Shown piece after piece: positions 3,700 through 39,624 of a stretch of DNA of 57,787 nt; the stretch's first letter is position 1, and the number at the start of each line of letters is the position of its first letter. This DNA comes from a virus (lineage: Duplodnaviria; Caudoviricetes). A model generated the notes under the pieces. The model did not search any database and had not been told where the DNA came from. It saw nothing but the letters and a program-made list of their open reading frames with translations. Location: positions 1 to 57,787 of the IMG/VR virus record IMGVR_UViG_3300037605_000079. One strand, 5' to 3'. Made by a program: the position numbers and the translations under genes.

Positions 3700-3870
3700 T
3701 CAAAGTAGTTTTGTTACTATCGTTTTGATCGTATAAGCCGCTAAAATGATAATTAAAGCTGTTATAGCCATTGACAATAGCGTTTCTTCAGATACGGTTA
3801 TTTCTATCGGCTGAAAAGTTGTACTTTCTAACTCCGACTTTAAGCTTTTAATGGTGTTATTAAATATCAT
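3700..3870 (-). CDS. 56-aa membrane peptide (not in ORF track)
   Basis: Hand translation MIFNNTIKSLKSELESTTFQPIEITVSEETLLSMAITALIIILAAYTIKTIVTKLL; fills the gap in the operon. Confidence 0.55.
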   Translation of the reverse strand: MIFNNTIKSLKSELESTTFQPIEITVSEETLLSMAITALIIILAAYTIKTIVTKLL

Positions 3871-3954
3871 TTTTTCGATCTTTTAAAATTTGTTTTATCG
3901 ATAGAAAAGCGCTTAAACTAAGCGTTATTATTGTTAAGAATGGAATTGTTTTTT

Positions 3955-4410
3955 TCATGGCTTGATTACTTGTTTTATATAACCATAGGCTACAAATAAT
4001 AGAACAATAAATAAGGCGGGTATTAGGTACTTAAAAGAGTTGCTAGTATTTAACACTCCTTCTGTAGTGTTATTTATAACATCTGTTGTTCTTTCTCCAG
4101 TTTTTAAAACCGTATAAGTAGCGTCATTTATTACACCTACTAAACCCGTGCTAATCGACCGGTATATTCCCATGTCTTTAGCCCATTCAATAAATTCAAT
4201 GTCGTCATTAACATAATTTCCACGAATAGCTCCAAAACTCGGTGCATCCGGATTGTTCCACGCTGCAACAAAACGCTTTTTAGCTTCTTCTAATCCAAAC
4301 TCTCTAAATAGTTCATCAAACCATTTTCGCCAGTCCGCTGCACTCCAGTAAGTATCGAAGCCCCAACTGTCGTAATCTGGTTGAGAATATGCGGTTATGG
4401 TAGTCATCAC
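3955..4410 (-). CDS. Protein with C-terminal TM anchor, putative virion membrane protein
   Basis: Trp-rich N-terminus; C-terminal YLIPALFIVLLFVAYGYIK. Confidence 0.6.
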   Translation of the reverse strand: MMTTITAYSQPDYDSWGFDTYWSAADWRKWFDELFREFGLEEAKKRFVAAWNNPDAPSFGAIRGNYVNDDIEFIEWAKDMGIYRSISTGLVGVINDATYTVLKTGERTTDVINNTTEGVLNTSNSFKYLIPALFIVLLFVAYGYIKQVIKP

Positions 4411-5141
4411 CTATTTTTTAGATAAATTGATAAACCTACAACCACAGAAACAACCGATAAAATTGAAATTATAGCAATAATCAACCGAGTTTGATTTTTA
4501 TCTTCCTCATTTTTAAGGTTCATTCTCGAAATATTAAAGCTGGTTAAAGCTTGAACATTTTGACTGTTGGCCATTGCTTCCGCCGATCTTCTATCGTTAT
4601 TAGACCTTTTATTTCCATTGAATAAATTGTCTACTCCACCAAGAATGCTTCCAACTCCTTGTGCAGCTATTCCCAAAGTCATTGGGTCGAAATGATCTAA
4701 ATTAGAATGATATTTCGATAGACCTAATATTTGCCCAGGTGTTGGTCTTGTTATACCGCCTTCAAAGTGATCGATATTCCTAAATAGTTCATCCATTTCT
4801 TTTAAATTTCCGTTGTTATGTGCGCTTAAATGCGCTTTTTTTACTACAGCGTTAAATACTCTCTCATTTTCTGAACCTAAGCGCTTTTTTAATAAATTAA
4901 TAGCTTCGATCAATTCTGATGAATTTAATTTAGCTATTTGTTCCGCCGCATAATTATCAGCTTTTATTTCATCTGAACTGTCATTAACTATATGTCCAAC
5001 TTCATGCAGCAAAATAAACTTTTGCTCCTGATCTGTTAGCTTAGGAAACTCTATTTCGTTAATGTAGATTTCTTTTGTTGCTCTATTTGCTGCGGCTAAT
5101 GAGTTTCCTAAAAAATCGACATACAAAACGTTTATTGTCAT
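4407..5141 (-). CDS. HEXXH zinc metallopeptidase domain fused to a Gly-rich segment and C-terminal TM
   Basis: FILLHEVGHIVN...DEIKADNYAA (HEXXH plus downstream E..AD, as in M48/M78-like peptidases); C-terminal LIIAIISILSVVSVVVGLSIYLKNR. Confidence 0.7.
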   Translation of the reverse strand: MTINVLYVDFLGNSLAAANRATKEIYINEIEFPKLTDQEQKFILLHEVGHIVNDSSDEIKADNYAAEQIAKLNSSELIEAINLLKKRLGSENERVFNAVVKKAHLSAHNNGNLKEMDELFRNIDHFEGGITRPTPGQILGLSKYHSNLDHFDPMTLGIAAQGVGSILGGVDNLFNGNKRSNNDRRSAEAMANSQNVQALTSFNISRMNLKNEEDKNQTRLIIAIISILSVVSVVVGLSIYLKNR

Positions 5142-5455
5142 CTATTCTTAATTAGATAAAATAAACCTCCCAGAAAAACAACAACCGCAAAAACTCCCAA
5201 TATTTTTGAGTAATTAGTAGTTTTAATTGGGGCTTCTTCTTTTGGTTTTACATTTCTCTCTACAGCTGGAGTTGCCCTAAATTCAGGCATTGATGGTGCA
5301 CTCGGTTTTGCTGAATTAATACCAGCAACATCAGCCACTGACTGAAATCCTTCTGAAATAATTTTTTTTGGACTGTCGCCAGAAAGTAGTTTACCGGCAC
5401 TAGTTATTGGATTAACATTTACAATTGCTTTTCCAACTTTTTTAAAAAATTCCAT
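5138..5455 (-). CDS. Protein with C-terminal TM anchor, putative virion membrane protein
   Basis: Amphipathic N-terminus MEFFKKVGKAI, Pro-rich linker, C-terminal TM ending LIKNR. Confidence 0.6.
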   Translation of the reverse strand: MEFFKKVGKAIVNVNPITSAGKLLSGDSPKKIISEGFQSVADVAGINSAKPSAPSMPEFRATPAVERNVKPKEEAPIKTTNYSKILGVFAVVVFLGGLFYLIKNR

Positions 5456-5456
5456 T

Positions 5457-6068
5457 TTAACGTTTCTTTTTTAGCACCAAAGCGCCGATGAATAATACAA
5501 TAGCAACACCAATTCCAATTACTAAAGGTTTTTTGTAAAACGGAACAGACTCTTCAGCTTCATCTAAAATATTGGGAGTAGTTGCATTTGGAATTGCTGG
5601 TTTTGATAAATTTACCTCAGACACGCCTCCTTTTAAATTGCCTATCAACTTACTTGCACTATCTAACACAGTAACAAACTGGTTTAAGCTCCATTTTTTA
5701 GGCTCTGCGTCAACTTGAGATGGTTTATCATTTAACTCCTTAGAGCCTAAAATAACTCCCTCGAATGGCCGACTAAATACGGGTCCTAACAATGATCCCT
5801 CAAAATTAGATACCATCAAATTAGGTCTTGTTTTTTTTGCTTCAGACTTAATATTTTCTGGCATTTTTTCATCGCGATAAACTTGATAAAGTTCTCGAGC
5901 AAAATCAGCTCCAGAAGGTCCTTTATACGCTTCGATTATCTTAGCTACTGTAACTTCTCCGTACTGATTAAATCGTTGCATCACGGCAACTACGCGATCT
6001 TTATTTTTTTGTATTAAATCAAGTATGAATTTTTCTAATACAATTCTGTCTTCTGCTGTTTTAGACAT
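5457..6068 (-). CDS. Protein with C-terminal TM anchor, putative virion membrane protein
   Basis: FYKKPLVIGIGVAIVLFIGALVLKKKR; internal SNFEG and PFEG motifs. Confidence 0.6.
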   Translation of the reverse strand: MSKTAEDRIVLEKFILDLIQKNKDRVVAVMQRFNQYGEVTVAKIIEAYKGPSGADFARELYQVYRDEKMPENIKSEAKKTRPNLMVSNFEGSLLGPVFSRPFEGVILGSKELNDKPSQVDAEPKKWSLNQFVTVLDSASKLIGNLKGGVSEVNLSKPAIPNATTPNILDEAEESVPFYKKPLVIGIGVAIVLFIGALVLKKKR

Positions 6069-6090
6069 TTGATTATTTTTTTATATTGGT

Positions 6091-6124
6091 AAAAAGAAAG
6101 GGGCACACGCTAGCGTACCCCTTT
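6091..6124 (-). terminator. Rho-independent terminator after the capsid candidate
   Basis: AAAGGGG...CCCCTTT stem with an A-run on + (U-tract on -). Confidence 0.6.
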
Positions 6125-6165
6125 AATTATTAATCAATCAATGAACGCCGATTAAAGCAAGGTTT

Positions 6166-6777
6166 TTACTGAGAAACTTCCCAATATCCTTCTAAAGTGA
6201 TTTCAGCATCTGAACTCTTAGGCACATTCAAAATCGCTACGCTTAAAGGACCCATTGTAAACACGTCGTTATACTCTGGTAAATAAGCCACAATTTTAGA
6301 ACCTTGGTTCTGATTTGTACTGAAGTACTTTTTCAAAGAAATACGTCTTTCAGATTCAGACTGGAATGGGTGAGCAGGACCAACTACTAAATCTTTATCG
6401 AAAGACTTTGGGTTGTTAGAACTGTACTCAATTCGCTCTACAACAAAATTGAATTTCTTCAACAAACCCTGAAGGTGCGAAATAGTCAATTTTGGATCAG
6501 TCGGAGTCATGGTAACTTTACCGTCGATGACCGGACCGTCTACAGCAATCGCTTCGGTTGCAAAGCCATAGTTTTTTAACTCCGAATTGTTCGCTAATAA
6601 TGCTGAACTAATTGCGATCGGTGTAGTAGCATCAGCCGTAGCTGTTGCAGAAATGTTAAAAGCAAATTTAACTGGTATTCTCATGTTGTTGGATTTTGCA
6701 GAAGGGTTTTCGCCTTCAAAATTATCAATAGATCTTTGCGCGTTTCTAGCCGCCGCTCTCAAAACTTCGTTATCCAT
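6166..6777 (-). CDS. Major capsid protein candidate (single jelly-roll size)
   Basis: 203 aa, soluble and beta-rich. Near the start of the structural operon, downstream of the packaging ATPase, followed by a terminator. Fold not verified. Confidence 0.55.
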   Translation of the reverse strand: MDNEVLRAAARNAQRSIDNFEGENPSAKSNNMRIPVKFAFNISATATADATTPIAISSALLANNSELKNYGFATEAIAVDGPVIDGKVTMTPTDPKLTISHLQGLLKKFNFVVERIEYSSNNPKSFDKDLVVGPAHPFQSESERRISLKKYFSTNQNQGSKIVAYLPEYNDVFTMGPLSVAILNVPKSSDAEITLEGYWEVSQ

Positions 6778-6789
6778 TTTTTATAAAAA

Positions 6790-7014
6790 TTATGACGCTT
6801 TTGCGTCGGCTGTTTTACTAACTACAGAAAGCTTTGGCTTGCTTTCCTTTTTGCGCTTGTGCTCGTTAATTGTTCCGGTAAATGTTTTTCCTTCGCCATC
6901 CGTTAACGAAACAGTTTTTACTGTCATTTTCTTATCATAAATGATAACGGCTAACATTGCAACCGCGAAAATTGCGAGTAAATAAAAAACTGATTTTATT
7001 GAAATATTATTCAT
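6790..7014 (-). CDS. Small membrane protein with basic C-terminus
   Basis: N-terminal TM VFYLLAIFAVAMLAVIIY; KRKKESKPK tail. Confidence 0.6.
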   Translation of the reverse strand: MNNISIKSVFYLLAIFAVAMLAVIIYDKKMTVKTVSLTDGEGKTFTGTINEHKRKKESKPKLSVVSKTADAKAS

Positions 7015-7197
7015 TTGATAGGTTTTGAAATTAATTCAGGAGCAAATATTACTGTCGGGCTTAAATTTTTCGGACGATTTCACGCTATTCCGAACTTAAT
7101 TAGTTGAATTTAGGCATTAAACAACTTTGTGAGCTATTAATTTGAATAAAAAAAAGCGCTCAAAAAGAATGAACGCTTTATTTAGGTTTTTATAGTT

Positions 7198-7413
7198 TTA
7201 AAAATCGTCGGTTAGACCGCCTATTTCTTCATCTATTATTTTTAACTGCTTAGGACTAAATTTTCTCGATGTTTTAATGTAGCCCGTTTCATTTACTAAT
7301 CGGTCAAATATGCGACCAGAATTAAAAATTTCATGATCGTTTTTAGACAAGCCTAATTTTTCTAAGACTGTAGCTTTCCAATTGTATTTATTAATGTTGA
7401 AATTTTCAGTCAT
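7198..7413 (-). CDS. Small hypothetical protein, possibly DNA-binding
   Basis: 71 aa with RKFSPKQLKII..EIG motif; function uncertain. Confidence 0.45.
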   Translation of the reverse strand: MTENFNINKYNWKATVLEKLGLSKNDHEIFNSGRIFDRLVNETGYIKTSRKFSPKQLKIIDEEIGGLTDDF

Positions 7414-7416
7414 TGT

Positions 7417-8025
7417 TTAAGGTCTTACATCTAAAGTGACGTTTATATGTTTATTTTTTGATCTTGATATTATTTGAAGCGCCTTTTCTATTTCAGGAGA
7501 AGGAAACCTGGATCTAGTTCTCTTTATTTCCTCTCCTGTTTTAAATAGCGTCAAAAGATCTATGTATGGACATAGCTCCAGAGGTATTTTGATCACCATA
7601 TGAAATACCAATATTAAATCAACGTTCTTTTGCTTACTATCCAATACTAAATTCCTTTGAGATTCGGTTAGTTTGCCATTAAGAAAAAATCGCGTAGCAT
7701 CTTCGACAATTACTAACATATTATAACAGTACTTTGCCGCGATCATTAAGGATAAATTAACGTCTGAAGAACAAACTCTTTTGACTCGTACGCCGTCATT
7801 TCCCCATCTCGGGACTTGCAAAGGTTCTATTATTGGAATGGATGTATTATTATCTGGATCATCATATGTTGCTAATGTTCTCCATGTTTGAGAGTCGAAG
7901 GTATCTATTATCAAGACTTTTATTTCAGGCCTTGAAGCTAAGACTTTCTTAATTTTATTTTTTGTAAAGTCAGTTTTTCCAGTACCTCGTCCACCTGCTA
8001 AAGCTGTAACTAAATTTACACTCAT
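7417..8025 (-). CDS. FtsK/HerA-superfamily genome-packaging ATPase (A32/PRD1 P9-like)
   Basis: N-terminal Walker A GGRGTGKT, VLIID strand, Walker B LVIVEDAT, SKQKNVDLILVFH motif; ~200 aa with no TM or nuclease domain. Confidence 0.8.
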   Translation of the reverse strand: MSVNLVTALAGGRGTGKTDFTKNKIKKVLASRPEIKVLIIDTFDSQTWRTLATYDDPDNNTSIPIIEPLQVPRWGNDGVRVKRVCSSDVNLSLMIAAKYCYNMLVIVEDATRFFLNGKLTESQRNLVLDSKQKNVDLILVFHMVIKIPLELCPYIDLLTLFKTGEEIKRTRSRFPSPEIEKALQIISRSKNKHINVTLDVRP

Positions 8026-8027
8026 TT

Positions 8028-8597
8028 TTAAGCTGTTAAAACGTTAATCAATCTAGTACCTACTAATTCCGCTAGTTTGACATAAAAAAGACCTTTAACA
8101 TTCATTTCAAAGCCTGTTTCTTCAGCGTATAGCTCGCAAACTTCTCGGAAATCTTCTTTTTCTTCGTCATTTAATTTTAATGATGCTTTTAGTTTTTCGA
8201 GCTTTGAGGAATAAAAAGCGGCTCTTTCCTGAAGTTCGATTTCTTCTGGCGTTAGCTTGCCTTGGTCTTTTGTTTCGATTAGTTCTAATTGGCCCCAATC
8301 ACTTTCGGATAGTTTCTTTTCAAACTTATGATTGAGAAAAGGTACACCAAAATTAAGCGCTAAAGATAAGGCGGATACCATACCTTTAGCAGTTACATCT
8401 GCAGATTGTTTTCGTTCTCCTGCTTCTTCAGCTTCAAAATTTAGGCGATTTTCTTCTTCTTCATGCTCTAAAAATTCAGGCTCTGGATCTGGTATTGGTG
8501 GAGGAGTAAATTTTGGCTCTTTATACTCTTTATCCTGCATTAATTCATCTACAAGACTAACTGTATTAGCAAGGTTTTTAAATTCATCATTCAGCAT
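8028..8597 (-). CDS. Hypothetical protein upstream of ATPase (packaging accessory candidate)
   Basis: Acidic/Pro-rich N-terminus, weakly hydrophobic segments, abuts the ATPase gene. Confidence 0.5.
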   Translation of the reverse strand: MLNDEFKNLANTVSLVDELMQDKEYKEPKFTPPPIPDPEPEFLEHEEEENRLNFEAEEAGERKQSADVTAKGMVSALSLALNFGVPFLNHKFEKKLSESDWGQLELIETKDQGKLTPEEIELQERAAFYSSKLEKLKASLKLNDEEKEDFREVCELYAEETGFEMNVKGLFYVKLAELVGTRLINVLTA

Positions 8598-8904
8598 TGT
8601 TTTCGGCTTTTATTTGTAGATCAATTTTTTTGATAATAGGCCATATGTCAGCCATTGGAGCAAATTTTTCTTTAAAACTATTGCTTTTGTTTTTTTTGAA
8701 TGGATTGGGCGAAAAATGACTTAAAAGCATTGGGATTAATGAAGATTTTATTTTTTCTTCTACAGCTTCAGCACCTTCATTTATTGAGTTTGTTAACTCC
8801 AGATTTTCTATCACTTTATAGATGTTAGAGTGAATAGCTTTAATATCTTCTTTTTTTTCCTGAAGCTCTGCTTTTAATAGCTCGTTTTCTAGTTCTAAAT
8901 TCAT
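8587..8904 (-). CDS. Hypothetical protein
   Basis: 105-aa ORF overlapping the next gene; coiled-coil N-terminus. Confidence 0.5.
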   Translation of the reverse strand: MNLELENELLKAELQEKKEDIKAIHSNIYKVIENLELTNSINEGAEAVEEKIKSSLIPMLLSHFSPNPFKKNKSNSFKEKFAPMADIWPIIKKIDLQIKAENNAE

Positions 8905-8908
8905 AGGG

Positions 8909-9532
8909 CTATTTATTAAGATCGTTAGAAGTTAAACCGGTATAAAACACGTTATCCTGGTTAAATAGTCGACCTTCATTAAAGAATGATTTTCTAAGGA
9001 TTTCGCCGTATGATTCTGGCGAAATAGATTCTCCTTGCTTTGCTTTTCTTGTGCCTTGAAGAAATCGTTTTTGCGAGATTACATTTAATACTTTTCTTTC
9101 ATTTTCTGATAGTACTACGATTGCCTGATTTTCATTTAATCGCTTTTCTACTTCGACGATTTTTTCAACTTCGACAACTTTTTCGACCTCTTTTTCTACT
9201 TCTACGGTCTTAGGCGCTGAAGTATAGCTTTTCATTAATTGGATTAAAAAACCTTCGTGAGTTTCTCCAGCTTTTGCGGCTAGGTCCATAAAGGTTCCTT
9301 TGATTTTTGGGGTTGTCTTTATTCCGAAAGTAGCTTTTTTCCTTGGAACGGCTATAACTGTCGGTTCGCTTGGGGTTTGCTTTTGATTATTCGAGGTTTC
9401 GCCTTGGTTTTCCTTCGGTTTCGCTTGGTTTAACTGCGAGTTTTCCGAATGTTCACCGCTAGTTTTCTCTAAGTTATCGTCTATATTCATCGGGTTGTTT
9501 ATTGGTTTACTTATTTTTTTACAAATAAACAA
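8909..9532 (-). CDS. Hypothetical protein with VEVEK repeats (start probably ATG 9490)
   Basis: Low-complexity N-terminus; VEVEKEVEKVVEVEKIVEVEK repeat. Confidence 0.55.
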   Translation of the reverse strand: MFICKKISKPINNPMNIDDNLEKTSGEHSENSQLNQAKPKENQGETSNNQKQTPSEPTVIAVPRKKATFGIKTTPKIKGTFMDLAAKAGETHEGFLIQLMKSYTSAPKTVEVEKEVEKVVEVEKIVEVEKRLNENQAIVVLSENERKVLNVISQKRFLQGTRKAKQGESISPESYGEILRKSFFNEGRLFNQDNVFYTGLTSNDLNK

Positions 9533-9609
9533 GAGGGCAACCGCCGATAATAGAGGTTAATTATATAGATAGGCTTTATTTATGCTTTTGATCAAAAAAG
9601 TTAAACGAC

Positions 9610-9672
9610 CCACAACAAGTTTATAAAATTCATTTCGCTACGCTTCACGACGTTTTTATAAACGTGTTGTGC
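9610..9672 (+). repeat. attC-like hairpin site A1
   Basis: CCACAAC...GTTGTGC ends; inner stem GTTTATAAAA/TTTTATAAAC. Confidence 0.65.
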
Positions 9673-9678
9673 GCAATA

Positions 9679-9939
9679 CTAAATTGGCTCGAAATTATCA
9701 TTAAAGTATTGTTCAGCAACTAACCATTGGTCAAGGTGGTTTTTAGGGTTTCGAGCTATCATATCGCCAATTTTAGGGCTACCCGCTTTCTTATCTTCAT
9801 CGGATATTGAAACGCCAATTGTCGAATCAGGAGTTGAATGAACAATTATTTGTCCATAAACACCATATTCATTCACATCCATATCGGTAACTTCTCTTAA
9901 TTCGCCAATTTGCTTACGTCTATATTTGTTAAATGTCAT
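9679..9939 (-). CDS. Cassette-borne hypothetical phage protein (start probably ATG 9939)
   Basis: GSPKIGDMIARNPKNHLDQWLVAEQYF; lies exactly between two attC-like sites. Confidence 0.65.
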   Translation of the reverse strand: MTFNKYRRKQIGELREVTDMDVNEYGVYGQIIVHSTPDSTIGVSISDEDKKAGSPKIGDMIARNPKNHLDQWLVAEQYFNDNFEPI

Positions 9940-9952
9940 AATAAAGTACTGC

Positions 9953-10083
9953 ACACAACACAGTATATAAAACAGTGGGGTGCTGTGTGTCTTTTTAACC
10001 CACTTGCACTTAATTAATTTTATCAGCTTCGGATAGGTAAGTGCATCCTATCCCCACCGTTTCATATACTCGGCACGTTGTAG
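9953..10083 (+). repeat. attC-like hairpin site A2
   Basis: ACACAAC...GTTGTAG ends; stem AGTATATAAAACAGTGGGG/CCCCACCGTTTCATATACT whose A-C mismatches become G-T pairs on the bottom strand. Confidence 0.7.
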
Positions 10084-10087
10084 GAAA

Positions 10088-10348
10088 TTAATTATCTTCT
10101 TTGGGATGTCCGCATTTTTTGCAATATGATGAACCTTTAAAGTTTTCCATAAAATATTGACATTTTTTAGTTTTGCAATTAGGACAAATTTTTAAAGATT
10201 TATCATTTGAAGAATTGTTATTTTTAGACTCCTTATGCCATACAAACATGGTTATTAATTCTACCAATGAAAATGCAAAAGTATCAGTCTCATCTAGCCA
10301 ATCTTTTACTTCTTTTTCTAGCTCGTGGTATTGTTTTTTATCTTCCAT
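10088..10348 (-). CDS. Small Zn-finger protein
   Basis: CPNC...C...CKKCGH. Confidence 0.55.
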   Translation of the reverse strand: MEDKKQYHELEKEVKDWLDETDTFAFSLVELITMFVWHKESKNNNSSNDKSLKICPNCKTKKCQYFMENFKGSSYCKKCGHPKEDN

Positions 10349-10351
10349 TTT

Positions 10352-10609
10352 TCAATTAACTTGTCCGTTAACTTTATCTGATAAATGTTTTCTGAAGGCG
10401 TTTTTTAAGTTGATAGCATAGTACGTTTTGCCTTCAATTTGAAACTCTTTTAAACCTTGCTTTTTTAGACGCTCAAACTTTAATAATTCAGCTTTCAACC
10501 TTAATGCTTTAGATCTTTTATTTATCGCTCTAATTATTGCTTTGTAAGTCATTTCGGCTAAAAAAATAGCTGCAATAAAAACCAATATTTCAATAATTAT
10601 TTTTAACAT
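10352..10609 (-). CDS. Small membrane protein
   Basis: N-terminal hydrophobic helix followed by a basic domain. Confidence 0.5.
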   Translation of the reverse strand: MLKIIIEILVFIAAIFLAEMTYKAIIRAINKRSKALRLKAELLKFERLKKQGLKEFQIEGKTYYAINLKNAFRKHLSDKVNGQVN

Positions 10610-10754
10610 TTACTTTTAATTTTCTTGTTATCCACTTGCTAACCATCTCCTCTTTCAGATTAAATTTTATTGATAAAGCTTTCATGGTGCACCCTGTTTT
10701 TAAATAGTGCTCATATGCGGCGTTTATGATTTTAAAATTGGTAATTGCAGGCAT
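10590..10754 (-). CDS. 54-aa HTH-like protein (not in ORF track)
   Basis: Hand translation ...YLKTGCTMKALSIKFNLKEEMVSKWI... resembles a helix-turn-helix. Confidence 0.45.
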   Translation of the reverse strand: MPAITNFKIINAAYEHYLKTGCTMKALSIKFNLKEEMVSKWITRKLKVNVKNNY

Positions 10755-10770
10755 AACTATAGCTTTTAGT

Positions 10771-10806
10771 AAAAAGCGGCTTAGGTATCAACTAAGCCGC
10801 TTTTTA
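10771..10806. terminator. Bidirectional terminator after ssb
   Basis: AAAAAGCGGCTTAG...CTAAGCCGCTTTTT inverted repeat. Confidence 0.75.
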
Positions 10807-10808
10807 AA

Positions 10809-11141
10809 TTAGTCTTTCACGCCTCCAAGAAGCTTTAATTCTCTTACAGTTAATGTTTGAGATTGGCCCTTTCCGCCGTCTTTTTTATCGTACATATTAA
10901 GCCCGGGCAATCCTGATACATAAACTTGTGTACCTTTTTTTAAATAGGAAGCTACTTTTGTGCTTCCGCCTTCCTTTACCCATTTAGAACACTCTACCCA
11001 CTCTGTTTTTTCACTTACAACGCCGTCAGCGTTTACATAACTTTCATTTACTGCTACAGAAAAGTTTATTACTTGCTTTTTTTCATGTTGGCCGATTTTA
11101 GCGTCAGCTCCTAGATTTCCGATTATTGTTAAAACTCTCAT
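10809..11141 (-). CDS. ssb: Single-stranded DNA-binding protein
   Basis: IIGNLGADA, FSVAVNE, TEWVEC, YLKKGTQVYVSG OB-fold motifs. Confidence 0.9.
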   Translation of the reverse strand: MRVLTIIGNLGADAKIGQHEKKQVINFSVAVNESYVNADGVVSEKTEWVECSKWVKEGGSTKVASYLKKGTQVYVSGLPGLNMYDKKDGGKGQSQTLTVRELKLLGGVKD

Positions 11142-11177
11142 ATTAATTTATTTATTGATTGATTAAAAATTTATTTA

Positions 11178-12866
11178 CTATTCAAAGTCTTCTGAAGGTT
11201 GCATTAGGGACCATTTTAAAAGCTCGTAGTTTTGCCTATTTTCTGAAAATTCTTTATCCATTTCATTAACACGCTCACGCTTACGCTTTCTACTGATTAC
11301 TTCTTTTATTTGATTATTTATCATTTCTAGCATCGCAGATACGAGTTTGTCGCTTGCCAGATAGCTTACTTTTGCTTTTTCGCTTAATGTTGGTTTATAA
11401 TCCTTTTCTTTATCTACAAAAACGGCGGTAGCTCTAGCAACTAAATACTTTACATTTTCATCAGGATTTAACGTTTCAGGATTTACCGTTTCTTCACGTC
11501 CGTAATTTTCCAGAACTTCGTTTAATTCATCTTCACAAGTAGGGTTTATATTTAGGCAATCAACACCATGAAGAGCGCCGAATTTTCGGTATAAAGGCTG
11601 CTTATATATTTCCGGCAATACTTCATTAATTAAATCAAAGTTGTAAATTCCATCATATTCCTCGCGCTTTAAATTCTCCAATACCGCATAATCATAAATT
11701 GTCAATCCTTCGTCGTCCGTTGTGGCTATTTCTTGCACGCCTTTAGTTTTAGTTAATTTTACGGCGTGTTTCTTTAGTCCTATAGGTTCAAAATGATATT
11801 TTATACATTCCATAATACCAGATAAAAAACTTTCCGGATCCTCTGGGTTTACATAGTGCTTCCATTTTTGTACATCAGGCATCCACCGATCAAAGGAGCT
11901 TTTTTTCTTTTTTGAAAGAATGTATAAACTTTCAAGGCTTATCATTGTCGCGCCAGTAGGATCTAAACTTTCAATAAATAGCTTATCCGTTTCATTGGCG
12001 CTTCCATAGCCTTTTTTATTCCCTAAAGCTTTCGCTATCCCTTCTCGGTCGGCTTCGGTAAATTCAACGCGTGAAGCGTCAGCCGTTGCCGTTTGCATAT
12101 TCCAATGCTTTAGTATGTTTCGGTATAAATTATTTCTATTTTTATCGATTTTATACGCGATAACTAAAGCGTGTATGTGTACGTGCATACCGTTAGCGCC
12201 TTTAGTTACTTCTACTCCAAATTCTCCGCCAAATACCGATTCTTTCCAGAATTTCTTTTTACGTAAAAAATTAAATTCCTTCATTAATTCTTTAGCGTAA
12301 AACTTTTTACCTCTCCAGCCTTCTTCGTTGTGAGGAACTGTCAGTGTTAGATGAAAAAAACTATAATCTTTAGTCGGTAAATCTTGGTAGCCTGTTAGCG
12401 TTTTAATGCGTTTCGGAACGCCTTTTTTAATCATTCGACCAGTTGGTCCATATTCAGGAAAGGTTTTATAAACTGTATTTCCGTTTTCATCGGTTACCGT
12501 CTTACTTTCGTAGCTCGGCAAGTGCATAACGCCGCCTTTAAAGAAATTATAGTACTTTGATCGGACTACTCTTTGTCGTTCCTTATTACATACGGGGCAA
12601 AGCTTGTGCTTGCACGTTTGCGAGGCTATGTATTCCAAAGCTCCGTTTGTTTGGTATTCTCTAAATAAGCTATTATTTGCGCATTGTTGAAGCGAAGATC
12701 TAAGGTTAATTAAGTGCATCATGTTATCGTTGTGCAAATCGTCGCAAGCTGAAGAAATTAAATAGTCATCAATCTCTGTATGTAGCTTTTTCGCTTCTCG
12801 GGCTGCATTAGCAATTTTATAGAGTCTTAATCGATTGCTTTTTCTACGTTTTTTTAATTCGTCCAT
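11178..12866 (-). CDS. rep: HUH rolling-circle replication initiator (Rep_1/pC194-like, with insertions)
   Basis: Zn motif CKHKLCPVC, motif I FHLTLTVP, EFGVEVT, motif II HVHIHAL, motif III ECIKY, RKFGALHG. Confidence 0.85.
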   Translation of the reverse strand: MDELKKRRKSNRLRLYKIANAAREAKKLHTEIDDYLISSACDDLHNDNMMHLINLRSSLQQCANNSLFREYQTNGALEYIASQTCKHKLCPVCNKERQRVVRSKYYNFFKGGVMHLPSYESKTVTDENGNTVYKTFPEYGPTGRMIKKGVPKRIKTLTGYQDLPTKDYSFFHLTLTVPHNEEGWRGKKFYAKELMKEFNFLRKKKFWKESVFGGEFGVEVTKGANGMHVHIHALVIAYKIDKNRNNLYRNILKHWNMQTATADASRVEFTEADREGIAKALGNKKGYGSANETDKLFIESLDPTGATMISLESLYILSKKKKSSFDRWMPDVQKWKHYVNPEDPESFLSGIMECIKYHFEPIGLKKHAVKLTKTKGVQEIATTDDEGLTIYDYAVLENLKREEYDGIYNFDLINEVLPEIYKQPLYRKFGALHGVDCLNINPTCEDELNEVLENYGREETVNPETLNPDENVKYLVARATAVFVDKEKDYKPTLSEKAKVSYLASDKLVSAMLEMINNQIKEVISRKRKRERVNEMDKEFSENRQNYELLKWSLMQPSEDFE

Positions 12867-12883
12867 CTTTTATTTTTAGGAAG

Positions 12884-12980
12884 GCCGCGGATTACCGCGG
12901 CAACTATTTTTATAACTAACCCTTTTTTTTTGCGTTTTCGCTTTAGGATTCCGAGCGTTTCTTATTTATCGAGGTAGGAG
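12884..12980 (-). promoter_or_regulatory. Candidate double-strand origin (dso)
   Basis: GC hairpin GCCGCGG-ATTA-CCGCGGC (12884-12901) and minus-strand TACCTCGATAAATAAG (CTCGATA at 12967-12973), similar to the pC194/phiX174 CTTGATA nick site, directly upstream of rep. Confidence 0.4.
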
Positions 12981-13010
12981 TTATTTACTTAATTACTAAC
13001 TTTTTAAAAA

Positions 13011-13277
13011 TTACCGTTCAAATTGAAATCCAGCTTCTGCTTTTACGTCTTCAGGAATTGAAACGAGCGACTTAATACGCTCAATACCTCCTAATGCGTC
13101 TACTGTTTCAATAATTTGTTTAAACTCATCAAGGAGCTTTAAATCGTGCTTAAAGCTTGGGTTGCTATCCAATAGTATATGGCCATTGTTGTAATAGTTT
13201 GATTCAATCGCTTTTTTGAAAATCGAAAAAGTCAAGTCCAGCTTTCGTTCTCTAAATGATTTAAATTTCTTAGGCAT
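13011..13277 (-). CDS. Hypothetical protein
   Basis: 88-aa ORF in the early operon. Confidence 0.5.
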   Translation of the reverse strand: MPKKFKSFRERKLDLTFSIFKKAIESNYYNNGHILLDSNPSFKHDLKLLDEFKQIIETVDALGGIERIKSLVSIPEDVKAEAGFQFER

Positions 13278-13451
13278 GGTCTAAATTGTTTTTTATTGGT
13301 TATTTCGGTGTTCCGCCTTGAAGGGCGGGGAAACTCGAAGTTTTTAAAAGAAGTTAGGGTCAGAATTGGACCAGGGCTTTCAACTCCTGGTCCTTCTTCT
13401 TTCAAAAAACTCTGGCGGTGGTTTCCAATCAGTCGCCAAAGCAAAAAATCT

Positions 13452-13922
13452 TTATTCTATTTGGCTACATCGCTTTACTTGGCTGTAATGCTCCGCTTGT
13501 CGTATTATTTCGTTTAAATTTTCAGCCGCCACATTATGCGAAATATTGTTTTCGTGGGGTAACACTGCTTTTAAGTGCCTTAAATTCATCATTGAAAACT
13601 TAGCTACTTCTTTAAGCGTTTTTTCGCCATTCTTTCCCCGGGCGTAATCTCTTAACATTTGGCAGTTTTCAAGGCTCTTTCGCTTGTTTGGTTGCGGAAT
13701 ATTTGAGTTGACAATTATATTCTCACAATGGGTAATATATGTAATCAGTTGTTTGGTATAAACTTGCTTTCTGTATTGATTCAGGAAGCTATAAGCAGCC
13801 CGAGCGTTTAAAAACTTCTTTTTAATCACTTCAAAATCTTTAGCGGCGGTTTCTCTAGCCTTTATCATCAAGTAACTAGCACCGGTTATTGGGTCGATTT
13901 GTAAAAACTTGTCTGCTATCAT
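13452..13922 (-). CDS. Hypothetical protein
   Basis: 156-aa ORF, ATGA-coupled to the upstream gene. Confidence 0.55.
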   Translation of the reverse strand: MIADKFLQIDPITGASYLMIKARETAAKDFEVIKKKFLNARAAYSFLNQYRKQVYTKQLITYITHCENIIVNSNIPQPNKRKSLENCQMLRDYARGKNGEKTLKEVAKFSMMNLRHLKAVLPHENNISHNVAAENLNEIIRQAEHYSQVKRCSQIE

Positions 13923-14110
13923 GCTGCTTTAGATTTATTATTAAATTCATTATAAACTCTCATTAGTAGCTTACTAGCATTCCTATTTTCAGAATTTAGC
14001 TTTTCTCGCTCTACATCATTGGTCGATCTTTTGGATTCTTGATCCGTTGCATAAATCTGGTTAATTAACGATCGCTTTATAATCTCCAGTTCCTCATTAC
14101 TTAATACCAT
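13919..14110 (-). CDS. Hypothetical protein
   Basis: 63-aa helical ORF in operon. Confidence 0.5.
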   Translation of the reverse strand: MVLSNEELEIIKRSLINQIYATDQESKRSTNDVEREKLNSENRNASKLLMRVYNEFNNKSKAA

Positions 14111-14114
14111 AGGA

Positions 14115-14324
14115 TTAATTATTTTGAATTATTAAATGAATGAAACATAGAATTGATAGTATGAATAAAATCGTACTAAATCCATCTGAAAATCTTCTCA
14201 ATTGGTCCGCATTAAAATAACGCTGCCTTAGAAAAGTCTTAATAATTAGATCTGTATTCAATAAATATGAAGTGGCCATCATTATAATTGCCACACATAC
14301 AATGTATAGATTAATGCTTTCCAT
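14115..14324 (-). CDS. Small two-TM membrane protein
   Basis: Two hydrophobic helices. Confidence 0.5.
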   Translation of the reverse strand: MESINLYIVCVAIIMMATSYLLNTDLIIKTFLRQRYFNADQLRRFSDGFSTILFILSILCFIHLIIQNN

Positions 14325-14634
14325 GTATTGTTTTGTTGTATTTATGAAAAATCTCGCTTTTTAAATGAATAAGCTTTGAAGCAGAGGGTTTTGAAGTAGC
14401 GCGTTTCTTCTTGCTGTAAGATTTATGCAATTGCTTGGGCGTTACATTTAAAACCTCTTGTATTAATAGCAACTCGTGAAAATTTGGGTCTGATTTTTTA
14501 TTATAAATCGAATTAAATCGACGTTTAGTCATCTCTAACTTGACCAATAAATCAGCTGAAGGAATAAATTTAGCAACCATATAACGTTCGGTTAAAACCT
14601 CTTTTAATTGATTGTATATTAATTCTTTATTCAT
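14311..14634 (-). CDS. Cro-like HTH regulator
   Basis: LEMTKRRFNSIYNKKSDPNFHELLLIQEVLNVT XRE-like pattern; divergent from the repressor. Confidence 0.6.
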   Translation of the reverse strand: MNKELIYNQLKEVLTERYMVAKFIPSADLLVKLEMTKRRFNSIYNKKSDPNFHELLLIQEVLNVTPKQLHKSYSKKKRATSKPSASKLIHLKSEIFHKYNKTIHGKH

Positions 14635-14814
14635 ATTTTATAAACTTGGCACATTTATAGTTTGAAAGAAAGCGCCAGAATTATATCTGGCGCTTAGGTT
14701 CTCCCGCTTTTTGTAAGATCTACCAAAATCATAACATTGATCGGGGGAGAGGAGTATTAAAATATTTTTGTGCTTTGCAATCATGTTATCTGATTTTGGT
14801 ATGATGCAAATGTA

Positions 14815-14880
14815 AATGATTTTCATTTAATAAAACAAGATAATCAATGAAAAACATTTTAAATTACAATGAAAACCATT
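14815..14880. promoter_or_regulatory. Three operator-like palindromes AATG-N5-CATT
   Basis: AATGATTTTCATT (14815), AATGAAAAACATT (14846), AATGAAAACCATT (14868) between divergent cro and repressor. Confidence 0.65.
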
Positions 14881-14915
14881 GCACAAAAAGTTTAAGTGAT
14901 TAATACTTTTAACCT

Positions 14916-15341
14916 ATGGAACAGATAATTAAAAACATAATATCGATAAGAAAAAAAAAGGGTATAACTCAGGAAGAAATAGCTGATCGATTTGGTTTTT
15001 CACAGAATGCAATCTATCGACTTGAAAAAGGACAACGAAAATTAGAAGTTGAGTTACTTATCTTTTTATGTCAATTATTTGAAATGAGTATTGACGAATT
15101 AATTAATTATCATTTAGACGAAGAAAAAAAACATTTAAAAAGCATAGCAAAAGAAGATGCACCAGCTTACATTGTTCAATCTGAAAAAGTAAACTATCTC
15201 AATCGAGAAATAAAGCTGTTAAACGAACGACTATTAGACAAAGAAACAATGTTAAGAATGAGCACCAATTTATTAAATGATAAAATCGAAGAAATAAAAC
15301 GTCTTAATTCTTATATTGAGCAACTTAAACAAACAAAATAA
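14916..15341 (+). CDS. XRE-family repressor of element A
   Basis: IRKKKGITQEEIADRFGFSQNAIYRLEKG HTH; C-terminal coiled coil. Confidence 0.85.
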   Translation: MEQIIKNIISIRKKKGITQEEIADRFGFSQNAIYRLEKGQRKLEVELLIFLCQLFEMSIDELINYHLDEEKKHLKSIAKEDAPAYIVQSEKVNYLNREIKLLNERLLDKETMLRMSTNLLNDKIEEIKRLNSYIEQLKQTK

Positions 15342-15346: not shown

Positions 15347-16048
15347 ATGAAAAATACACTTTTAGCCGTTATGTTTGCGGCCTTTTCGTTGACCGTAACC
15401 GCTCAATCGGAATTTAACAAACATCAAGTAAATTTTAATTTTGGAACATCAACGCCTACAGGAGACTTTGCGGATGATGACATTAATAATGAAAATTCAG
15501 GTTTTGCAGAATTTGGCGGCGCCTTTAATGTTGGATACGCTTATCGTTTTCATAAACTATTTGCAGGAACTGTAAATATATCGGGTAAAGCCTTCACCCT
15601 AGATCATGAGCTAATCAGATCAGAATTATTTAATCCTACAGCCATTCAGGGCAGTGATGCAGATAATTATTTACTTTCCTCCTTCACTATAGGCGCAAAA
15701 TTAATTGTAGGCGAAAAGCATCATTTTGTATTTAATCCATATATAGGAAGCGCGTTATTAACATTCCCGAATAATAATTACGCCGCTACCGACTTATTTA
15801 ATACAATTAGTTTTGAATTTAAAGAAGCTCAACTAACTAGCTTGATAACTGGATTTAATACTGGCGCCGAATTTAAACTTTCAGAATTATTAAGCCTTAG
15901 CGCTTTAATTAATTACGAAGTAGCTAATTTTGAAGACGAACAGACTGTTATTTATACCGAAAATGGAATTTCACAATCAACAACTGGCGATTTAAAACTT
16001 CCTTATAGTTCTTTTGGTGTTTTAGTTGGCTTGAATTTTAACTTCTAA
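15347..16048 (+). CDS. Outer-membrane beta-barrel protein (lysogenic conversion/exclusion candidate)
   Basis: Signal peptide, amphipathic strands, C-terminal VGLNFNF barrel signal; directly downstream of the repressor. Confidence 0.8.
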   Translation: MKNTLLAVMFAAFSLTVTAQSEFNKHQVNFNFGTSTPTGDFADDDINNENSGFAEFGGAFNVGYAYRFHKLFAGTVNISGKAFTLDHELIRSELFNPTAIQGSDADNYLLSSFTIGAKLIVGEKHHFVFNPYIGSALLTFPNNNYAATDLFNTISFEFKEAQLTSLITGFNTGAEFKLSELLSLSALINYEVANFEDEQTVIYTENGISQSTTGDLKLPYSSFGVLVGLNFNF

Positions 16049-17723
16049 TAAAACTGAAACAAAAATTGAAACAAAAAGCATTTATATCGATCGATTTTAG
16101 TTTTTTAACTAACTCAAAATAAGCCAATAAAAAATGCAAAAAAATCAAAGAAGAATCCCATCTTCCACCCTTAAGAGGACTAGAAGAAAATTCTAGTCCT
16201 CTTTTTAATTTTACAAGTTCACAATTCTTTATTTTACGGTCACTTACATCAAAAAATTGATTGATATAAGTGGTTCGAACTCTTCGATTATCCTTATCGA
16301 TCATTATCCCTTCAGGAAACATAGCCTTTAGCAGTCTTGACTTAGCTAAATTATCTGATGTAGAATAGATTGAATCAATATTCAACAGTGGTTCGAACTT
16401 TTCTGCAGTAAATGTATCAAAGAATGATAGATCCTGAGAAAGTTCATCATACTTAATTTTATACTCCAAATTCTGATTACTTAACTTATAAGTTAACTCA
16501 TTGTACTTCTTGCTGTCTATTTCATTATCTAGAAACTTCTGCTCGAGGTTACCAATTCGCTTTTCAACCCTTTTTAATTCAGCACTAACTGCAGAACGCT
16601 CTGCGAGGATCTGCATACGCTTCTCATTGGCCACATCCATAACCATTTCTGCCATCCCACTAGTATCGAAGCTTAGGTTACGTACTAATTCAGACACCAA
16701 GTTGTGAGCGAAATCAACATTGATATTCTTCCGATTCTTTCCGGTCGTATGGTAATAAGCGTATCTATTACCATTTCTAGATCTACTCTTACTCGCAGTC
16801 ATCTTCTTAGATTCTTCAGAAAATAGCAAGCCTTTAAGATAGTACTCCGATCGTTGCTGCTCATCAAGCGTCCATGATCTACCTCTATTTGCACCCGGAT
16901 TACCTTTCAAAATTTCTTGCATAAGATTATACTCACCCAAAGTAATGATGCCCTCATGCTTTCCTTTTACAATCTCTTCAGGCAAGAAGTTGTGCGCTTT
17001 ACAGTGCACATATCCTGCATACACTATGTGAGTAAATATGTTGTAGAAGACATTCTTCTTAATTTCCAATCTATCCTTAAATTCATGGAATAACTCTCCT
17101 CTATTCTCACCTGCAATAAAGCGATCAACGATCTGTCTTACCAATGGTCCTTTTACAGGATCAGGAACCATCAACTTCCGATCATTACCTGATCTTGTTT
17201 TTTCGCCTGTAGCCACTCGAGTATAACCTACAGGAGTATTGCTCGTGAAGTAGCCATTGCGCTGCGCCTGTGCTATACCATTTTTAGTACGCTGACTAAT
17301 GTTCAACGATTCAGAGTGAGCTGTAGTAGCGTACATTCCTAGGAAATTTGGCCACATGGATTGCGAGAAATCAATCAACTGATACACCGCATTCACTTCC
17401 ACTCCAAGCTCAGCGAATTGACGAACAGTAGCAAAATGCATCTCTGTATTACGGCCGAATCTGTCCCACTTCTCAATGAACAAGTAATCCACTTGAGATT
17501 GGCTGCCTTTTTGACTTCTGCAGACATCAAAGATCTTCTTCAGCTCGTTACGATCAAATGTAGTTCCAGAGATCACATCAAAGTAAGTACCTACTATTTC
17601 ACAACCCTGAGTGAAGGGGTGTGATTTAATTTGGTTGATTTGGTATTCGATGGAGTTTCCTGACTGTTGCTGTTCTTCGGTGCTACAACGAGCGTAGATG
17701 ATTGCGTTCTTTTTTCTTTCCAT
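16038..17723 (-). CDS. Large serine recombinase (integrase), C-terminus interrupted by att site at 16164-16170
   Basis: AIIYARCST..Q catalytic Ser, SG...DRNEL, KWDRFGRN, PVGY, YLKGLL, YAYY, coiled coil. Confidence 0.93.
   Translation of the reverse strand: MERKKNAIIYARCSTEEQQQSGNSIEYQINQIKSHPFTQGCEIVGTYFDVISGTTFDRNELKKIFDVCRSQKGSQSQVDYLFIEKWDRFGRNTEMHFATVRQFAELGVEVNAVYQLIDFSQSMWPNFLGMYATTAHSESLNISQRTKNGIAQAQRNGYFTSNTPVGYTRVATGEKTRSGNDRKLMVPDPVKGPLVRQIVDRFIAGENRGELFHEFKDRLEIKKNVFYNIFTHIVYAGYVHCKAHNFLPEEIVKGKHEGIITLGEYNLMQEILKGNPGANRGRSWTLDEQQRSEYYLKGLLFSEESKKMTASKSRSRNGNRYAYYHTTGKNRKNINVDFAHNLVSELVRNLSFDTSGMAEMVMDVANEKRMQILAERSAVSAELKRVEKRIGNLEQKFLDNEIDSKKYNELTYKLSNQNLEYKIKYDELSQDLSFFDTFTAEKFEPLLNIDSIYSTSDNLAKSRLLKAMFPEGIMIDKDNRRVRTTYINQFFDVSDRKIKNCELVKLKRGLEFSSSPLKGGRWDSSLIFLHFLLAYFELVKKLKSIDINAFCFNFCFSFIRS
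16153..16170 (+). repeat. 3' fragment of a tRNA (likely tRNA-His); right att of element A and left att of element B
   Basis: GAATCCCATCTTCCACCC matches the T-loop 3' side plus acceptor stem with the CCACCC end typical of tRNA-His. Tandem TGAAACAAAAA repeats at 16055 and 16067 resemble integrase arm sites. Confidence 0.65.
16174..16206 (+). terminator. Phage-supplied terminator just after the tRNA 3' end
   Basis: 12-bp stem AGAGGACTAGAA/TTCTAGTCCTCT followed by a T-run. Confidence 0.65.
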
Positions 17724-29011: not shown

Positions 29012-30071
29012 TGGTAGCTTTTTTGAATTTAATTTTCTCCGCGTAAATACGCTCTCTTGATGTGTATGGGCTTAACTTTTGTGTTCCATTATTAACCAAC
29101 GGAATGAGCTTGCTGCCGTCGATTAAGTATTTATGGTACGATTTAATCAGCTCGCGCAGCATGCTATACTTTGCTTTATCGTGAATAAAACCGGTACTAA
29201 ACTCTATGGGCATCGATTCAGAAAACTCGGTCTCCTGCATCAAGTCCACGTTGTTATTGACGTAGGTGTCTTGAGCAGTACGTATTTGCTCTGAAAATTC
29301 TGCACTACCGGTCATCTCTATCACCGATAAGGTGCTGTGAATATTTTGATACGCCAATAAGTGATGATCTACTTGGGTAGGCATCAAATAAATATTTCCC
29401 AAATCGATATTAGAGGTGGCAGTAAAAAAAACTTTTAGCCCGTATAGATCCACTTCAGGCGCTATAATATTGCGCATAGGAATGGAGATGGTATGCAGGT
29501 AATAACTATTAGGTCCTGATACTATATTAATAACACTACTGCCAGAAGGCTTATTAATCTGAACAGATCCGGGCAAAGCATTGCTTAGAAAAGTATAGGT
29601 AAGCACTGCCTGACTACTCGCGAATACTGTTTGAGCAGCATTTAGCAGCACCCTACTACCATACTCTATATCGGTAATTGGCAATGGAGTAATCATGCCT
29701 GTTACCATATAGAACTCTACATCTTCGAGTCCTCGAGAATCTCCTTGATCAGGATTTACTACTAAGACTCTAACCTTTGCCATGTCGTAGGAACGCAATT
29801 GCACTCCATTAGTAGCAACGGTAGGCTCTTCCCAAGCGTTGGTAATTATACTGTGCACATAATGAGAAATAGGAAATTCCACATTGAGCTTGTAGAAAGG
29901 TATTTCAAATTCGTGCGTCCACACTTTGGTGTTGTAGGTTACTGTTAATTGAATTGTACACACTTTTAAGGGGCTATTGGGTGGAATCTCCACCAACACC
30001 TTTTTATCGTCAAAGGTGCCATAGATGTAATCATCTTGGTAGTCGCCAATGTATCTTATTTCAGTACTCAT
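28983..30071 (-). CDS. Tail protein (distal tail candidate)
   Basis: Directly after the tape measure; beta-rich. Confidence 0.6.
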   Translation of the reverse strand: MSTEIRYIGDYQDDYIYGTFDDKKVLVEIPPNSPLKVCTIQLTVTYNTKVWTHEFEIPFYKLNVEFPISHYVHSIITNAWEEPTVATNGVQLRSYDMAKVRVLVVNPDQGDSRGLEDVEFYMVTGMITPLPITDIEYGSRVLLNAAQTVFASSQAVLTYTFLSNALPGSVQINKPSGSSVINIVSGPNSYYLHTISIPMRNIIAPEVDLYGLKVFFTATSNIDLGNIYLMPTQVDHHLLAYQNIHSTLSVIEMTGSAEFSEQIRTAQDTYVNNNVDLMQETEFSESMPIEFSTGFIHDKAKYSMLRELIKSYHKYLIDGSKLIPLVNNGTQKLSPYTSRERIYAEKIKFKKATNDNFSNRII

Positions 30072-33290: not shown

Positions 33291-33307
33291 TCCGATTAAT
33301 TATACAG

Positions 33308-33343
33308 CTAATTTCGGAGATGGTGCAGCCCTAAAATAGGACA
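33308..33343 (-). promoter_or_regulatory. TGTCCT-type late promoter
   Basis: TGTCCTATTT-N19-AAATTAG, directly after a terminator at about 33345-33375. Confidence 0.7.
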
Positions 33344-33483
33344 CAAAAAAACCTAAGCAGATCTGCTCAGGTTTTAAATTATTATCTTTAATTCATGGAA
33401 AGTATAACAGAATGGTATGAGGTAGTCTTTTTGATCATCCTAGCTATAGCCGGAATAGTACTACAAGATAAAGTGAGGAAACG

Positions 33484-35425: not shown

Positions 35426-35430
35426 AACTA

Positions 35431-38338: not shown

Positions 38339-38339
38339 A

Positions 38340-39620: not shown

Positions 39621-39624
39621 AAGA

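Follow-up and report, generated by a model that had tools for sequence, protein, structure and literature searches.

The stretch of DNA analyzed here (the window) covers the whole of a 57.8-kb IMG/VR provirus record, in which an element encoding a rolling-circle-type Rep protein (element A), a tailed prophage and host DNA follow one another from left to right (Table 1). The genes around the locus of interest in element A are all on the minus strand and run in the order Rep, SSB, three small ORFs, a large hairpin, an 86-aa ORF and a small hairpin, beyond which lie further minus-strand genes, including those for a P-loop ATPase and a phage lysozyme. Residues H228, H230 and H232 are invariant in the alignment of the Rep family, and the order Rep, SSB, ATPase is common to element A and its relatives in Bacteroidota. 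Sequence comparison suggests that the serine integrase is part of element A, not of the tailed prophage. In two Bacteroidota genomes, homologs of this integrase are encoded within a few kb of relatives of Rep (L093, 6928-8478; L102, 1326-2714). No tyrosine recombinase is encoded in the 57.8-kb window, and a search of it against Rfam at gathering thresholds returned two tRNAs and nothing else.

Table 1. Coordinates of the features discussed, counted from the first letter of the window
Feature	Position	Strand	Remarks
Inferred mobile unit (cassette)	9667-10077		Drawn from conserved blocks between homologous cassettes
Small hairpin site (W2)	9610-9672	-	CACAAC and GTTGTG cores; found by a custom scanner
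Cassette ORF	9679-9939	-	86 aa from ATG at 9939; open frame 9679-9954; sole ORF between the sites
Large attC-like site (W1)	9953-10083	-	70.7 bits against covariance model R1; itself among the 16 seeds of R1
Replication module of element A (Rep and SSB)	10809-12866	-	
SSB of element A	10809-11141	-	Pfam 60.1 bits
Rep of element A, rolling-circle type	11178-12866	-	Pfam Rep_1 33.2 bits, exactly at the cut-off
Serine integrase	16038-17723		
Tailed prophage	~18-53 kb		Terminase, portal, tape measure and primase present
Last full site of the second array	53689-53795	-	R1 24.8 bits, E = 0.0096
Mini-hairpin of two cores alone, second array	53807-53844	-	Read by eye; no tool score
100-aa ORF, second array	53862-54164	-	No Pfam match
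Left half-site, second array	54213-54247	-	Read by eye; no tool score
85-aa ORF, just before the left half-site	54258-54515	-	No Pfam match
Family site heading the second array, beside host tRNA-Leu	54552-54613	-	R1 29.4 bits, E = 0.0012; full model, short loop
Host DNA at the right end of the window	MutS 55157-57787; tRNA-Gly; tRNA-Leu		

The tailed prophage has repeats of its own. Non-coding DNA at its end (52560-52860) is crowded with direct and inverted copies of the 7-nt word GTTCCAC or its complement, contains a hairpin with 18-nt arms (52674-52740) and looks, as far as sequence goes, like an iteron-type origin or binding array. A short word, AATAGGAC, followed by an A-rich tail, recurs between genes (33329-33375, 39607-39630, 42276-42299, 47105-47151, 47618-47636, 51080-51103 and 52541-52559); a perfect terminator-like palindrome follows in two copies, and the word might serve the phage as a promoter or operator. 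The prophage region also includes a 265-nt tandem duplication (92% identical; 34690-35263) within the gene region 34532-35425, and a perfect palindrome with 20-nt arms and a 1-nt centre in coding sequence (48661-48701).

The first-pass annotation had described two attC-like hairpin sites bracketing a single gene, and both were located where it had placed them, 280 nt apart and with one ORF between them. Read along the minus strand, the large site (W1) consists of an AAC core, a 7-nt spacer, one side of an imperfect stem of 18-19 bp, a 71-nt loop, the other side of the stem, a 3-nt spacer and a GTT core; its hairpin (9962-10070) has 19-nt arms that are 89% complementary, with 71 nt between them. 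The small site (W2) also carries AAC and GTT triplets, and its hairpin (9611-9671) has a 25-nt centre between arms of 18 nt that are 94% complementary. As single-stranded DNA, W2 folds at -13.7 kcal/mol on the plus strand and -15.3 kcal/mol on the minus strand (z = -3.3 and -3.6, 200 shuffles). For W1, the minus strand is the better folder, at -22.1 kcal/mol (z = -3.45, with 1 of 200 shuffles equally good) compared with -15.1 kcal/mol for the plus strand (z = -1.13, 200 shuffles). A custom scanner that requires an AAC..GTT frame around an internal stem gave 4 matches in the window versus 0-3 (mean ~0.5) in 20 shuffles. An inverted repeat spans the gene (9664-9685 versus 9940-9961; 22 nt, 82% complementary). 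The annotation had also called the start of the cassette nearly the reverse complement of its end, which was borne out for 13 of 15 bases: a 15-mer from the flank of the small site has its reverse complement at 9945-9959 with 2 mismatches, the chance level being 1.44 matches per window at ≤3 mismatches. The hairpins and complementary inner flanks exceed chance.

Based on its sequence, the ORF between the two sites would encode a small conserved phage protein with no assigned function. We confirmed 209 relatives in viral contigs, the nearest Atlas clusters are ~80% viral, and an alignment of 33 family members contains 23 invariant columns. Searches against Pfam and PHROG gave no match at E ≤ 0.01, and an AlphaFold2 model (pLDDT 79.7) had no fold match in the PDB (best E = 0.086); a weak lead from the Atlas points to PGDYG, on 15% of the members of one cluster. 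The expectation that homologs would occur with the same flanking sites held for a minority of them. Among 80 homolog loci, all those with sites being low in G+C, a site lies ≤120 nt upstream of the ORF in 8, downstream in 6 and on both sides in 5, whereas 69 of the 80 have no site at all, so the ORF is mostly an ordinary phage gene.

To describe the sites as a family, we built a covariance model (R1) from 16 seed sites, which had been picked from the homolog loci by a stem-requiring scanner and whose pairing is therefore partly the result of selection. The family architecture comprises an AAC core, an 18-bp covarying stem, an A-rich loop of ~70 nt and a GTT core, with spacers of 7 and 3 nt. 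On the left, every one of the 16 seeds has AAC with a G after it, and on the right a T before GTT; the triplets AAC and GTT themselves are kept in 54-55 of 55 chromosomal sites. Among 56 non-seed chromosomal sites, aligned with R1 and thus in an alignment that leans towards its structure, 89.2% of cells pair compared to 64.1% after shuffling (0 of 500 shuffles reached 89.2%), and sliding the partner lowers pairing to 34-44%. In these non-seed sites, 94.7% of the long stem is paired, with 16 of 18 pairs changing on both sides; 53 of the 56 sites keep one G.T pair, and one position is mismatched in 24 of 56. RNAalifold applied to the seeds agrees with this picture (12 of 13 pairs compensated). 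Structure is conserved in these sites and sequence is not. Unpaired features make the two strands of an attC site unequal, and in this family the unequal spacers, the G.T pair and the mismatched position may take the part of extrahelical bases.

W2 is a weak member of this family (R1 10.6 bits, E = 6.7, match 9607-9675) and does not have the G after AAC that all seeds carry. W2 may have decayed or may be a secondary target; we presume it to be the resident or terminal site that holds the cassette. A near copy of W2 (5 differences and 1 gap over 59 nt), in unlike flanks, is present on another contig of 21 kb in both pond runs; in one of these runs that contig is ~100x deeper than element A. Two further candidates in the window were set aside: a scanner match at 13328-13427 had no R1 match and was read as an ordinary stem-loop, and an R1 match at 3823-3933 (17.3 bits, E = 0.31) was too weak to count.

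Applied to the 80 loci holding homologs of the ORF, R1 gave 67 matches (E ≤ 0.1), 66 of them on the strand of the ORF. The matches are concentrated in 11 loci, where they are arrayed at a median spacing of 431 nt, up to 18 of them within 9 kb, and two of the array-bearing records are complete phages with terminal repeats. Four of the five array-bearing phage records with a homolog have no tyrosine recombinase gene; a 414-aa tyrosine integrase near the array of locus L017 proved to be an ordinary phage-type integrase. As a control, 47 Bacteroidota loci (733 kb) around relatives of Rep yielded 0 R1 matches at E ≤ 1.

Alignments of homologous cassettes delimit the unit that moves. Between the window and locus L010, identity is 0.31 before the first AAC, 0.64 over the W1 site, 0.65 over the ORF and 0.37 after the second AAC, and the 16-nt stretch leading from the stop codon to the next AAC is identical at 16 of 16 positions. 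Loci L017 and L023 give the same profile at higher identity (0.43 outside, 0.87 over the site, 0.91 over the ORF, 16 of 16 nt, and 0.42 outside again). In the comparisons of the window with L010 and of L017 with L023 and L018, the conserved block extends from one AAC core to the next. A conserved site-plus-gene block in unrelated flanks indicates that the mobile unit is one site and the gene after it, cut in the cores. In the window, on the plus strand, this unit runs from just after the G of the W2 GTT core to the G of the W1 GTT core, and the boundaries given in the annotation thus coincide with the block conserved between homologous phage cassettes. The cut itself would fall within the cores, which is as finely as the alignments resolve its position. 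In the homologous loci compared, the same cassette has unrelated neighbors in different phages; at the level of sequence, one cassette with differing neighbors fits what would be predicted of a cassette system. In the window and in the viral arrays, each gene comes after its site when read on the strand of the gene, an order other than the classical one of gene before site.

We searched for the family in 151 evenly sampled Bacteroidota genomes, counting R1 sites at E ≤ 1e-6. Sites were present in 55 genomes and a Xer-like recombinase in 52, with both in 38, sites only in 17, recombinase only in 14 and neither in 82 (odds ratio 13, Fisher p = 1.8e-11, uncorrected for relatedness). In 17 genomes, the recombinase lies ≤6 kb from a site, among the matches listed. 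Four chromosomal arrays that we inspected contain 7-22 co-oriented sites, none of them seeds, over 7-35 kb, and a tyrosine recombinase gene stands at the end of these arrays. The array-linked recombinase resembles both Xer proteins and integron integrases, scoring 215 bits against NF040815 (cut-off 220) and 204.8 bits against TIGR02249, below the cut-off of 265. The IntI-specific insertion of Vibrio IntIA, in blocks of 12 and 27 columns, is gapped in 7 of 7 array-linked recombinases.

The viral forms of this recombinase measure 265-276 aa and the chromosomal ones ~340-380 aa. Relatives of it, 39-48% identical, were found in 197 stretches of viral contigs, and 46 of the 80 viral loci kept with such a relative contain R1 sites (247 in all). 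A second search covered 30 of the 46 loci, with duplicates and loci with little upstream DNA left out. At E ≤ 1e-6, it identified 122 sites in 26 viral loci; of these sites, 120 are upstream of the recombinase gene and 121 share its strand. In 13 of 25 loci, 200-600 nt separate the end of the last site from the matched portion of the gene. Median spacing in the recombinase-bearing viral arrays is 424 nt. Five of the recombinase-bearing viral records are linear, with an estimated completeness of 19-100%, and some viral records may therefore include host DNA.

Viral and chromosomal arrays differ in the polarity of genes relative to sites. Genes lie on the site strand in 47 of 56 viral intervals from the ORF-homolog loci and in 82 of 94 from the recombinase loci, whereas they lie opposite the site strand in 39 of 49 chromosomal intervals examined. 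Because this polarity flips between viruses and chromosomes, a role as RNA is unlikely and the sites would act as DNA. In our reading, the recombinase occupies the same array end relative to site polarity, and is co-oriented with the cassette genes, in viral and chromosomal arrays alike. Some chromosomal loci, a minority whose recombinases are 40-46% identical to the query, resemble the viral arrangement.

Canonical integron integrases were found in the same genomes and show no association with the sites. Full-length IntI scored above the curated cut-off (TIGR02249, 294-497 bits) in 50 of 151 genomes, in many cases at the end of a contig. The IntegronFinder 2.0 paper (PMC9024848) names far fewer, a single complete Bacteroidetes integron; integrons in Bacteroidota are mentioned without detail by Ghaly et al. 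(bioRxiv 10.1101/2022.02.06.479319). Sites and canonical IntI occur together in 17 genomes, sites only in 38, IntI only in 33 and neither in 63 (odds ratio 0.85, p = 0.72, uncorrected for relatedness), and where a genome has both, they are on different contigs, among the matches listed. In 100 kb of DNA surrounding 5 Bacteroidota IntI genes, R1 reached at most 19.2 bits versus 60-107 bits in the arrays. R1 gave weak matches in a Vibrio integron carried by a phage (n = 4) and beside one Bacteroidota IntI (n = 3). The four Vibrio matches are at attC positions and all opposite the cassette-gene strand, and it is on these weak matches (4 Vibrio, 3 Bacteroidota IntI) that the assignment of classical strands to R1 sites rests.

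A second array of the family is found in the window itself, at 53400-54650. It is small and partly decayed, lies beside host tRNA-Leu and tRNA-Gly, and includes a weak further site match at 53421-53486. Nearly all sites in the window, including those at 53.7-54.6 kb, have the minority core pair CAAC/GTTG, which is carried by 4 of 55 chromosomal sites; this shared variant supports the notion of one host enzyme that acts on all sites of the window. The first-pass annotation had proposed that two unrelated virus types in one host draw on a shared capture system. Sites of the same family at 53.7-54.6 kb favor that proposal, but the array, between host tRNA-Leu and the tailed prophage, may be host DNA rather than viral.

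The annotation had further called for a search for relatives of element A lacking exactly the cassette, and this search came back empty: no relative with an empty site was found among those searched, the closest Rep relatives examined at the level of their DNA being ≤37% identical. The closest Rep proteins are 50-52% identical, and neither a Rep protein search of viral, genome and metagenome contigs nor blastn of positions 6000-13000 against phage records returned a close relative. In contigs assembled from two pond runs, a procedure that drops rare variants, no joint spanning the cassette was seen across positions 4000-15000; the sole difference from the window in this interval was a 1-nt deletion at 9653, which belongs to another contig.

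Considering these results together, we think it probable that 9667-10077 is a gene cassette of an integron-like Bacteroidota system, one likely served in trans by a Xer-like recombinase. Such a cassette system appears to be common to Bacteroidota bacteria and their viruses. It is probably not the classical integron, given that the linked recombinase does not have the IntI-specific domain and that viral gene polarity is inverted. From the anatomy of the locus, the membership of W1 in the family, the covarying structure, the boundaries of the unit and the genomic linkage to a recombinase, we infer catalysis, a folded-strand mechanism and entry of the cassette into element A as follows. The sites would act as DNA, with one strand (here the minus strand) folding into a long imperfect hairpin closed by the AAC and GTT cores. 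Two such folded sites would be paired by a tyrosine recombinase provided in trans, which would cut in the cores and exchange whole units; the enzyme would most likely be the Xer-like recombinase without the extra domain of IntI that is encoded at a fixed end of the arrays. Element A would at first have held the simple site W2 alone, and would have gained the cassette from a viral pool while in a host making the enzyme. Many rolling-circle replicons displace the Rep coding strand. The folding strand is the Rep coding strand in element A, and if it is displaced during rolling-circle replication, the sites would be exposed as single-stranded DNA.

Other readings of the locus differ from this one in the enzyme or in the nature of the hairpins. 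The same cassette logic could be operated by a classical IntI of the host, extra domain included, in which case the sites would be a plain integrase-less attC cluster of the Bacteroidota type. The frequency of full-length IntI in the phylum, the recombination of one attC site of Polaribacter phage P12002L by IntI1 (PMC9892861) and the weak R1 matches at Vibrio attC positions and beside one Bacteroidota IntI are what would be expected in that case, but the presence of IntI is unrelated to that of R1 sites, its surroundings score far below the arrays and the two sit on different contigs where they co-occur, among the matches listed; we regard a classical IntI as unlikely. The hairpins might instead be regulatory or structural repeats (terminators, RNA-stability elements or promoters), with genes shuffled by homologous recombination during co-infection and no dedicated recombinase. 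Intergenic repeats are a natural substrate for homologous exchange, and most array-bearing phage records with the ORF encode no tyrosine recombinase. A polarity that flips between chromosomal and viral arrays, however, is ill-suited to a cis-acting RNA signal, the low sequence identity within an array of kept structure makes a poor substrate for homologous recombination, and the tight positional link to a recombinase gene would be unexplained, which together make regulatory repeats distinctly improbable.

That the hairpins are double- or single-strand origins for the rolling-circle Rep of element A is a reading to which we assign very little probability. Hairpin origins are indeed found in rolling-circle replicons, and Rep and SSB lie 1.1-1.6 kb upstream of the sites, but there is no such site in the 47 loci of Rep relatives, tailed-phage genomes and chromosomal arrays without Rep are full of sites of this family, and it is the ORF, not Rep, that the site accompanies. 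We hold it just as improbable that the unit is a miniature hairpin-ended single-strand transposon, derived from IS200/IS605 or REP-like and moved by an HUH nuclease. The subterminal hairpins, the small size and the copy of W2 elsewhere in the same community would suit such an element; the strictly co-oriented tandem arrays would not, nor would a linked gene encoding a tyrosine recombinase instead of an HUH transposase, and Rep, the one HUH protein encoded in the window, has relatives without sites.

Beyond an integron-like cassette at this locus, we tentatively advance a broader proposal, which we hold at somewhat less than even confidence: that Bacteroidota possess a second, unrecognized integron-like system apart from classical integrons, with a Xer-like recombinase that does not have the IntI domain, two mirror forms and a viral pool of cassettes. 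In the mirror forms, chromosomal genes would be antisense to the folding strand and viral genes on it, and a viral cassette would be silent once landed in a bacterial array, and the reverse. Small accessory genes would then pass between viruses as different as tailed phages and a provirus with a rolling-circle Rep by way of a separate, viral cassette pool. Gene capture in bacteria is, by textbook account, the work of integrons, and phages have only recently been shown to contain a few integron sites; if the proposal is true, a large phylum, together with its viruses, has a parallel cassette system that works with a simpler recombinase. Cassette exchange between unrelated types of virus would then extend to viral accessory genes, the class to which anti-defence genes belong, and functional screens could pick out hundreds of mobile viral genes by a short, easily recognized DNA signature. 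The system also offers a direct test of whether the extra domain of IntI is needed for folded-site recombination.

A literature search whose coverage misses most subscription journals returned nothing on this class of sites or on arrays linked to a Xer-like recombinase in Bacteroidota. Bacteroidetes have been reported to be nearly devoid of complete integrons. The closest precedent is the work of Qi et al. 2023 (PMC9892861), which describes 17 integrase-less attC clusters of few sites each in 10,705 phage genomes and reads them as parts of classical integrons. Such a cluster (CALIN) consists of at least two neighboring attC sites lacking an integrase in their vicinity, and W1 with the weak W2 may make up one. 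The attC core is quoted there as G|TTRRRY; the cores in our window, GTTGTGT and GTTGTGG, each depart from RRRY at one or two places. Polaribacter phage P12002L (L133) carries one of these clusters, and IntI1 recombined one of its two tested sites in that study. We found 9 R1 matches in this phage (E < 0.1, best 52.4 bits), the correspondence to the published attC sites being by phage and not by coordinates; 3 of the 9 overlap annotated genes and have high composition bias. The matches, more numerous than the two sites tested by Qi et al., spread over 10 kb (29400-39300) among methyltransferase and Mom-like genes, with one in the structural region (14496-14631).

Like the phage clusters of PMC9892861, the viral arrays described here have attC-type sites without integrase in phage genomes, and P12002L carries the family. 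They differ from what is described there in being long (up to 18 sites in 9 kb versus few sites), in that many viral contigs encode a recombinase of their own and in the presence of one cassette in a provirus with a rolling-circle Rep. The reverse-orientation integrons of Spirochaetota, as described in the preprint of Ghaly et al. (bioRxiv 10.1101/2022.02.06.479319), also have a recombinase pointing with the cassette genes, although their integrases are IntI with the extra domain.

With classical integrons, the present system has in common imperfect palindromes closed by paired AAC and GTT cores with structure kept and sequence varied, co-oriented tandem arrays of short, mostly single-gene units bounded at the cores, and a tyrosine recombinase gene at one fixed array end. 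It differs from them in a linked recombinase without the IntI-specific insertion, whose gene is co-oriented with the cassette genes rather than divergent, in sites with an A-rich loop of ~70 nt, spacers of 7 and 3 nt and one conserved G.T pair, and in that the IntI genes of the same phylum are not associated with its sites. A likeness of another kind is found in T4-type phages, in which promoter stem-loops ('mobile regulatory cassettes') flank small accessory genes and are thought to drive modular shuffling, as promoter-bearing repeats exchanged by homologous recombination. The sites described here are distinguished from these stem-loops by covarying structure, AAC and GTT cores and a linked recombinase gene.
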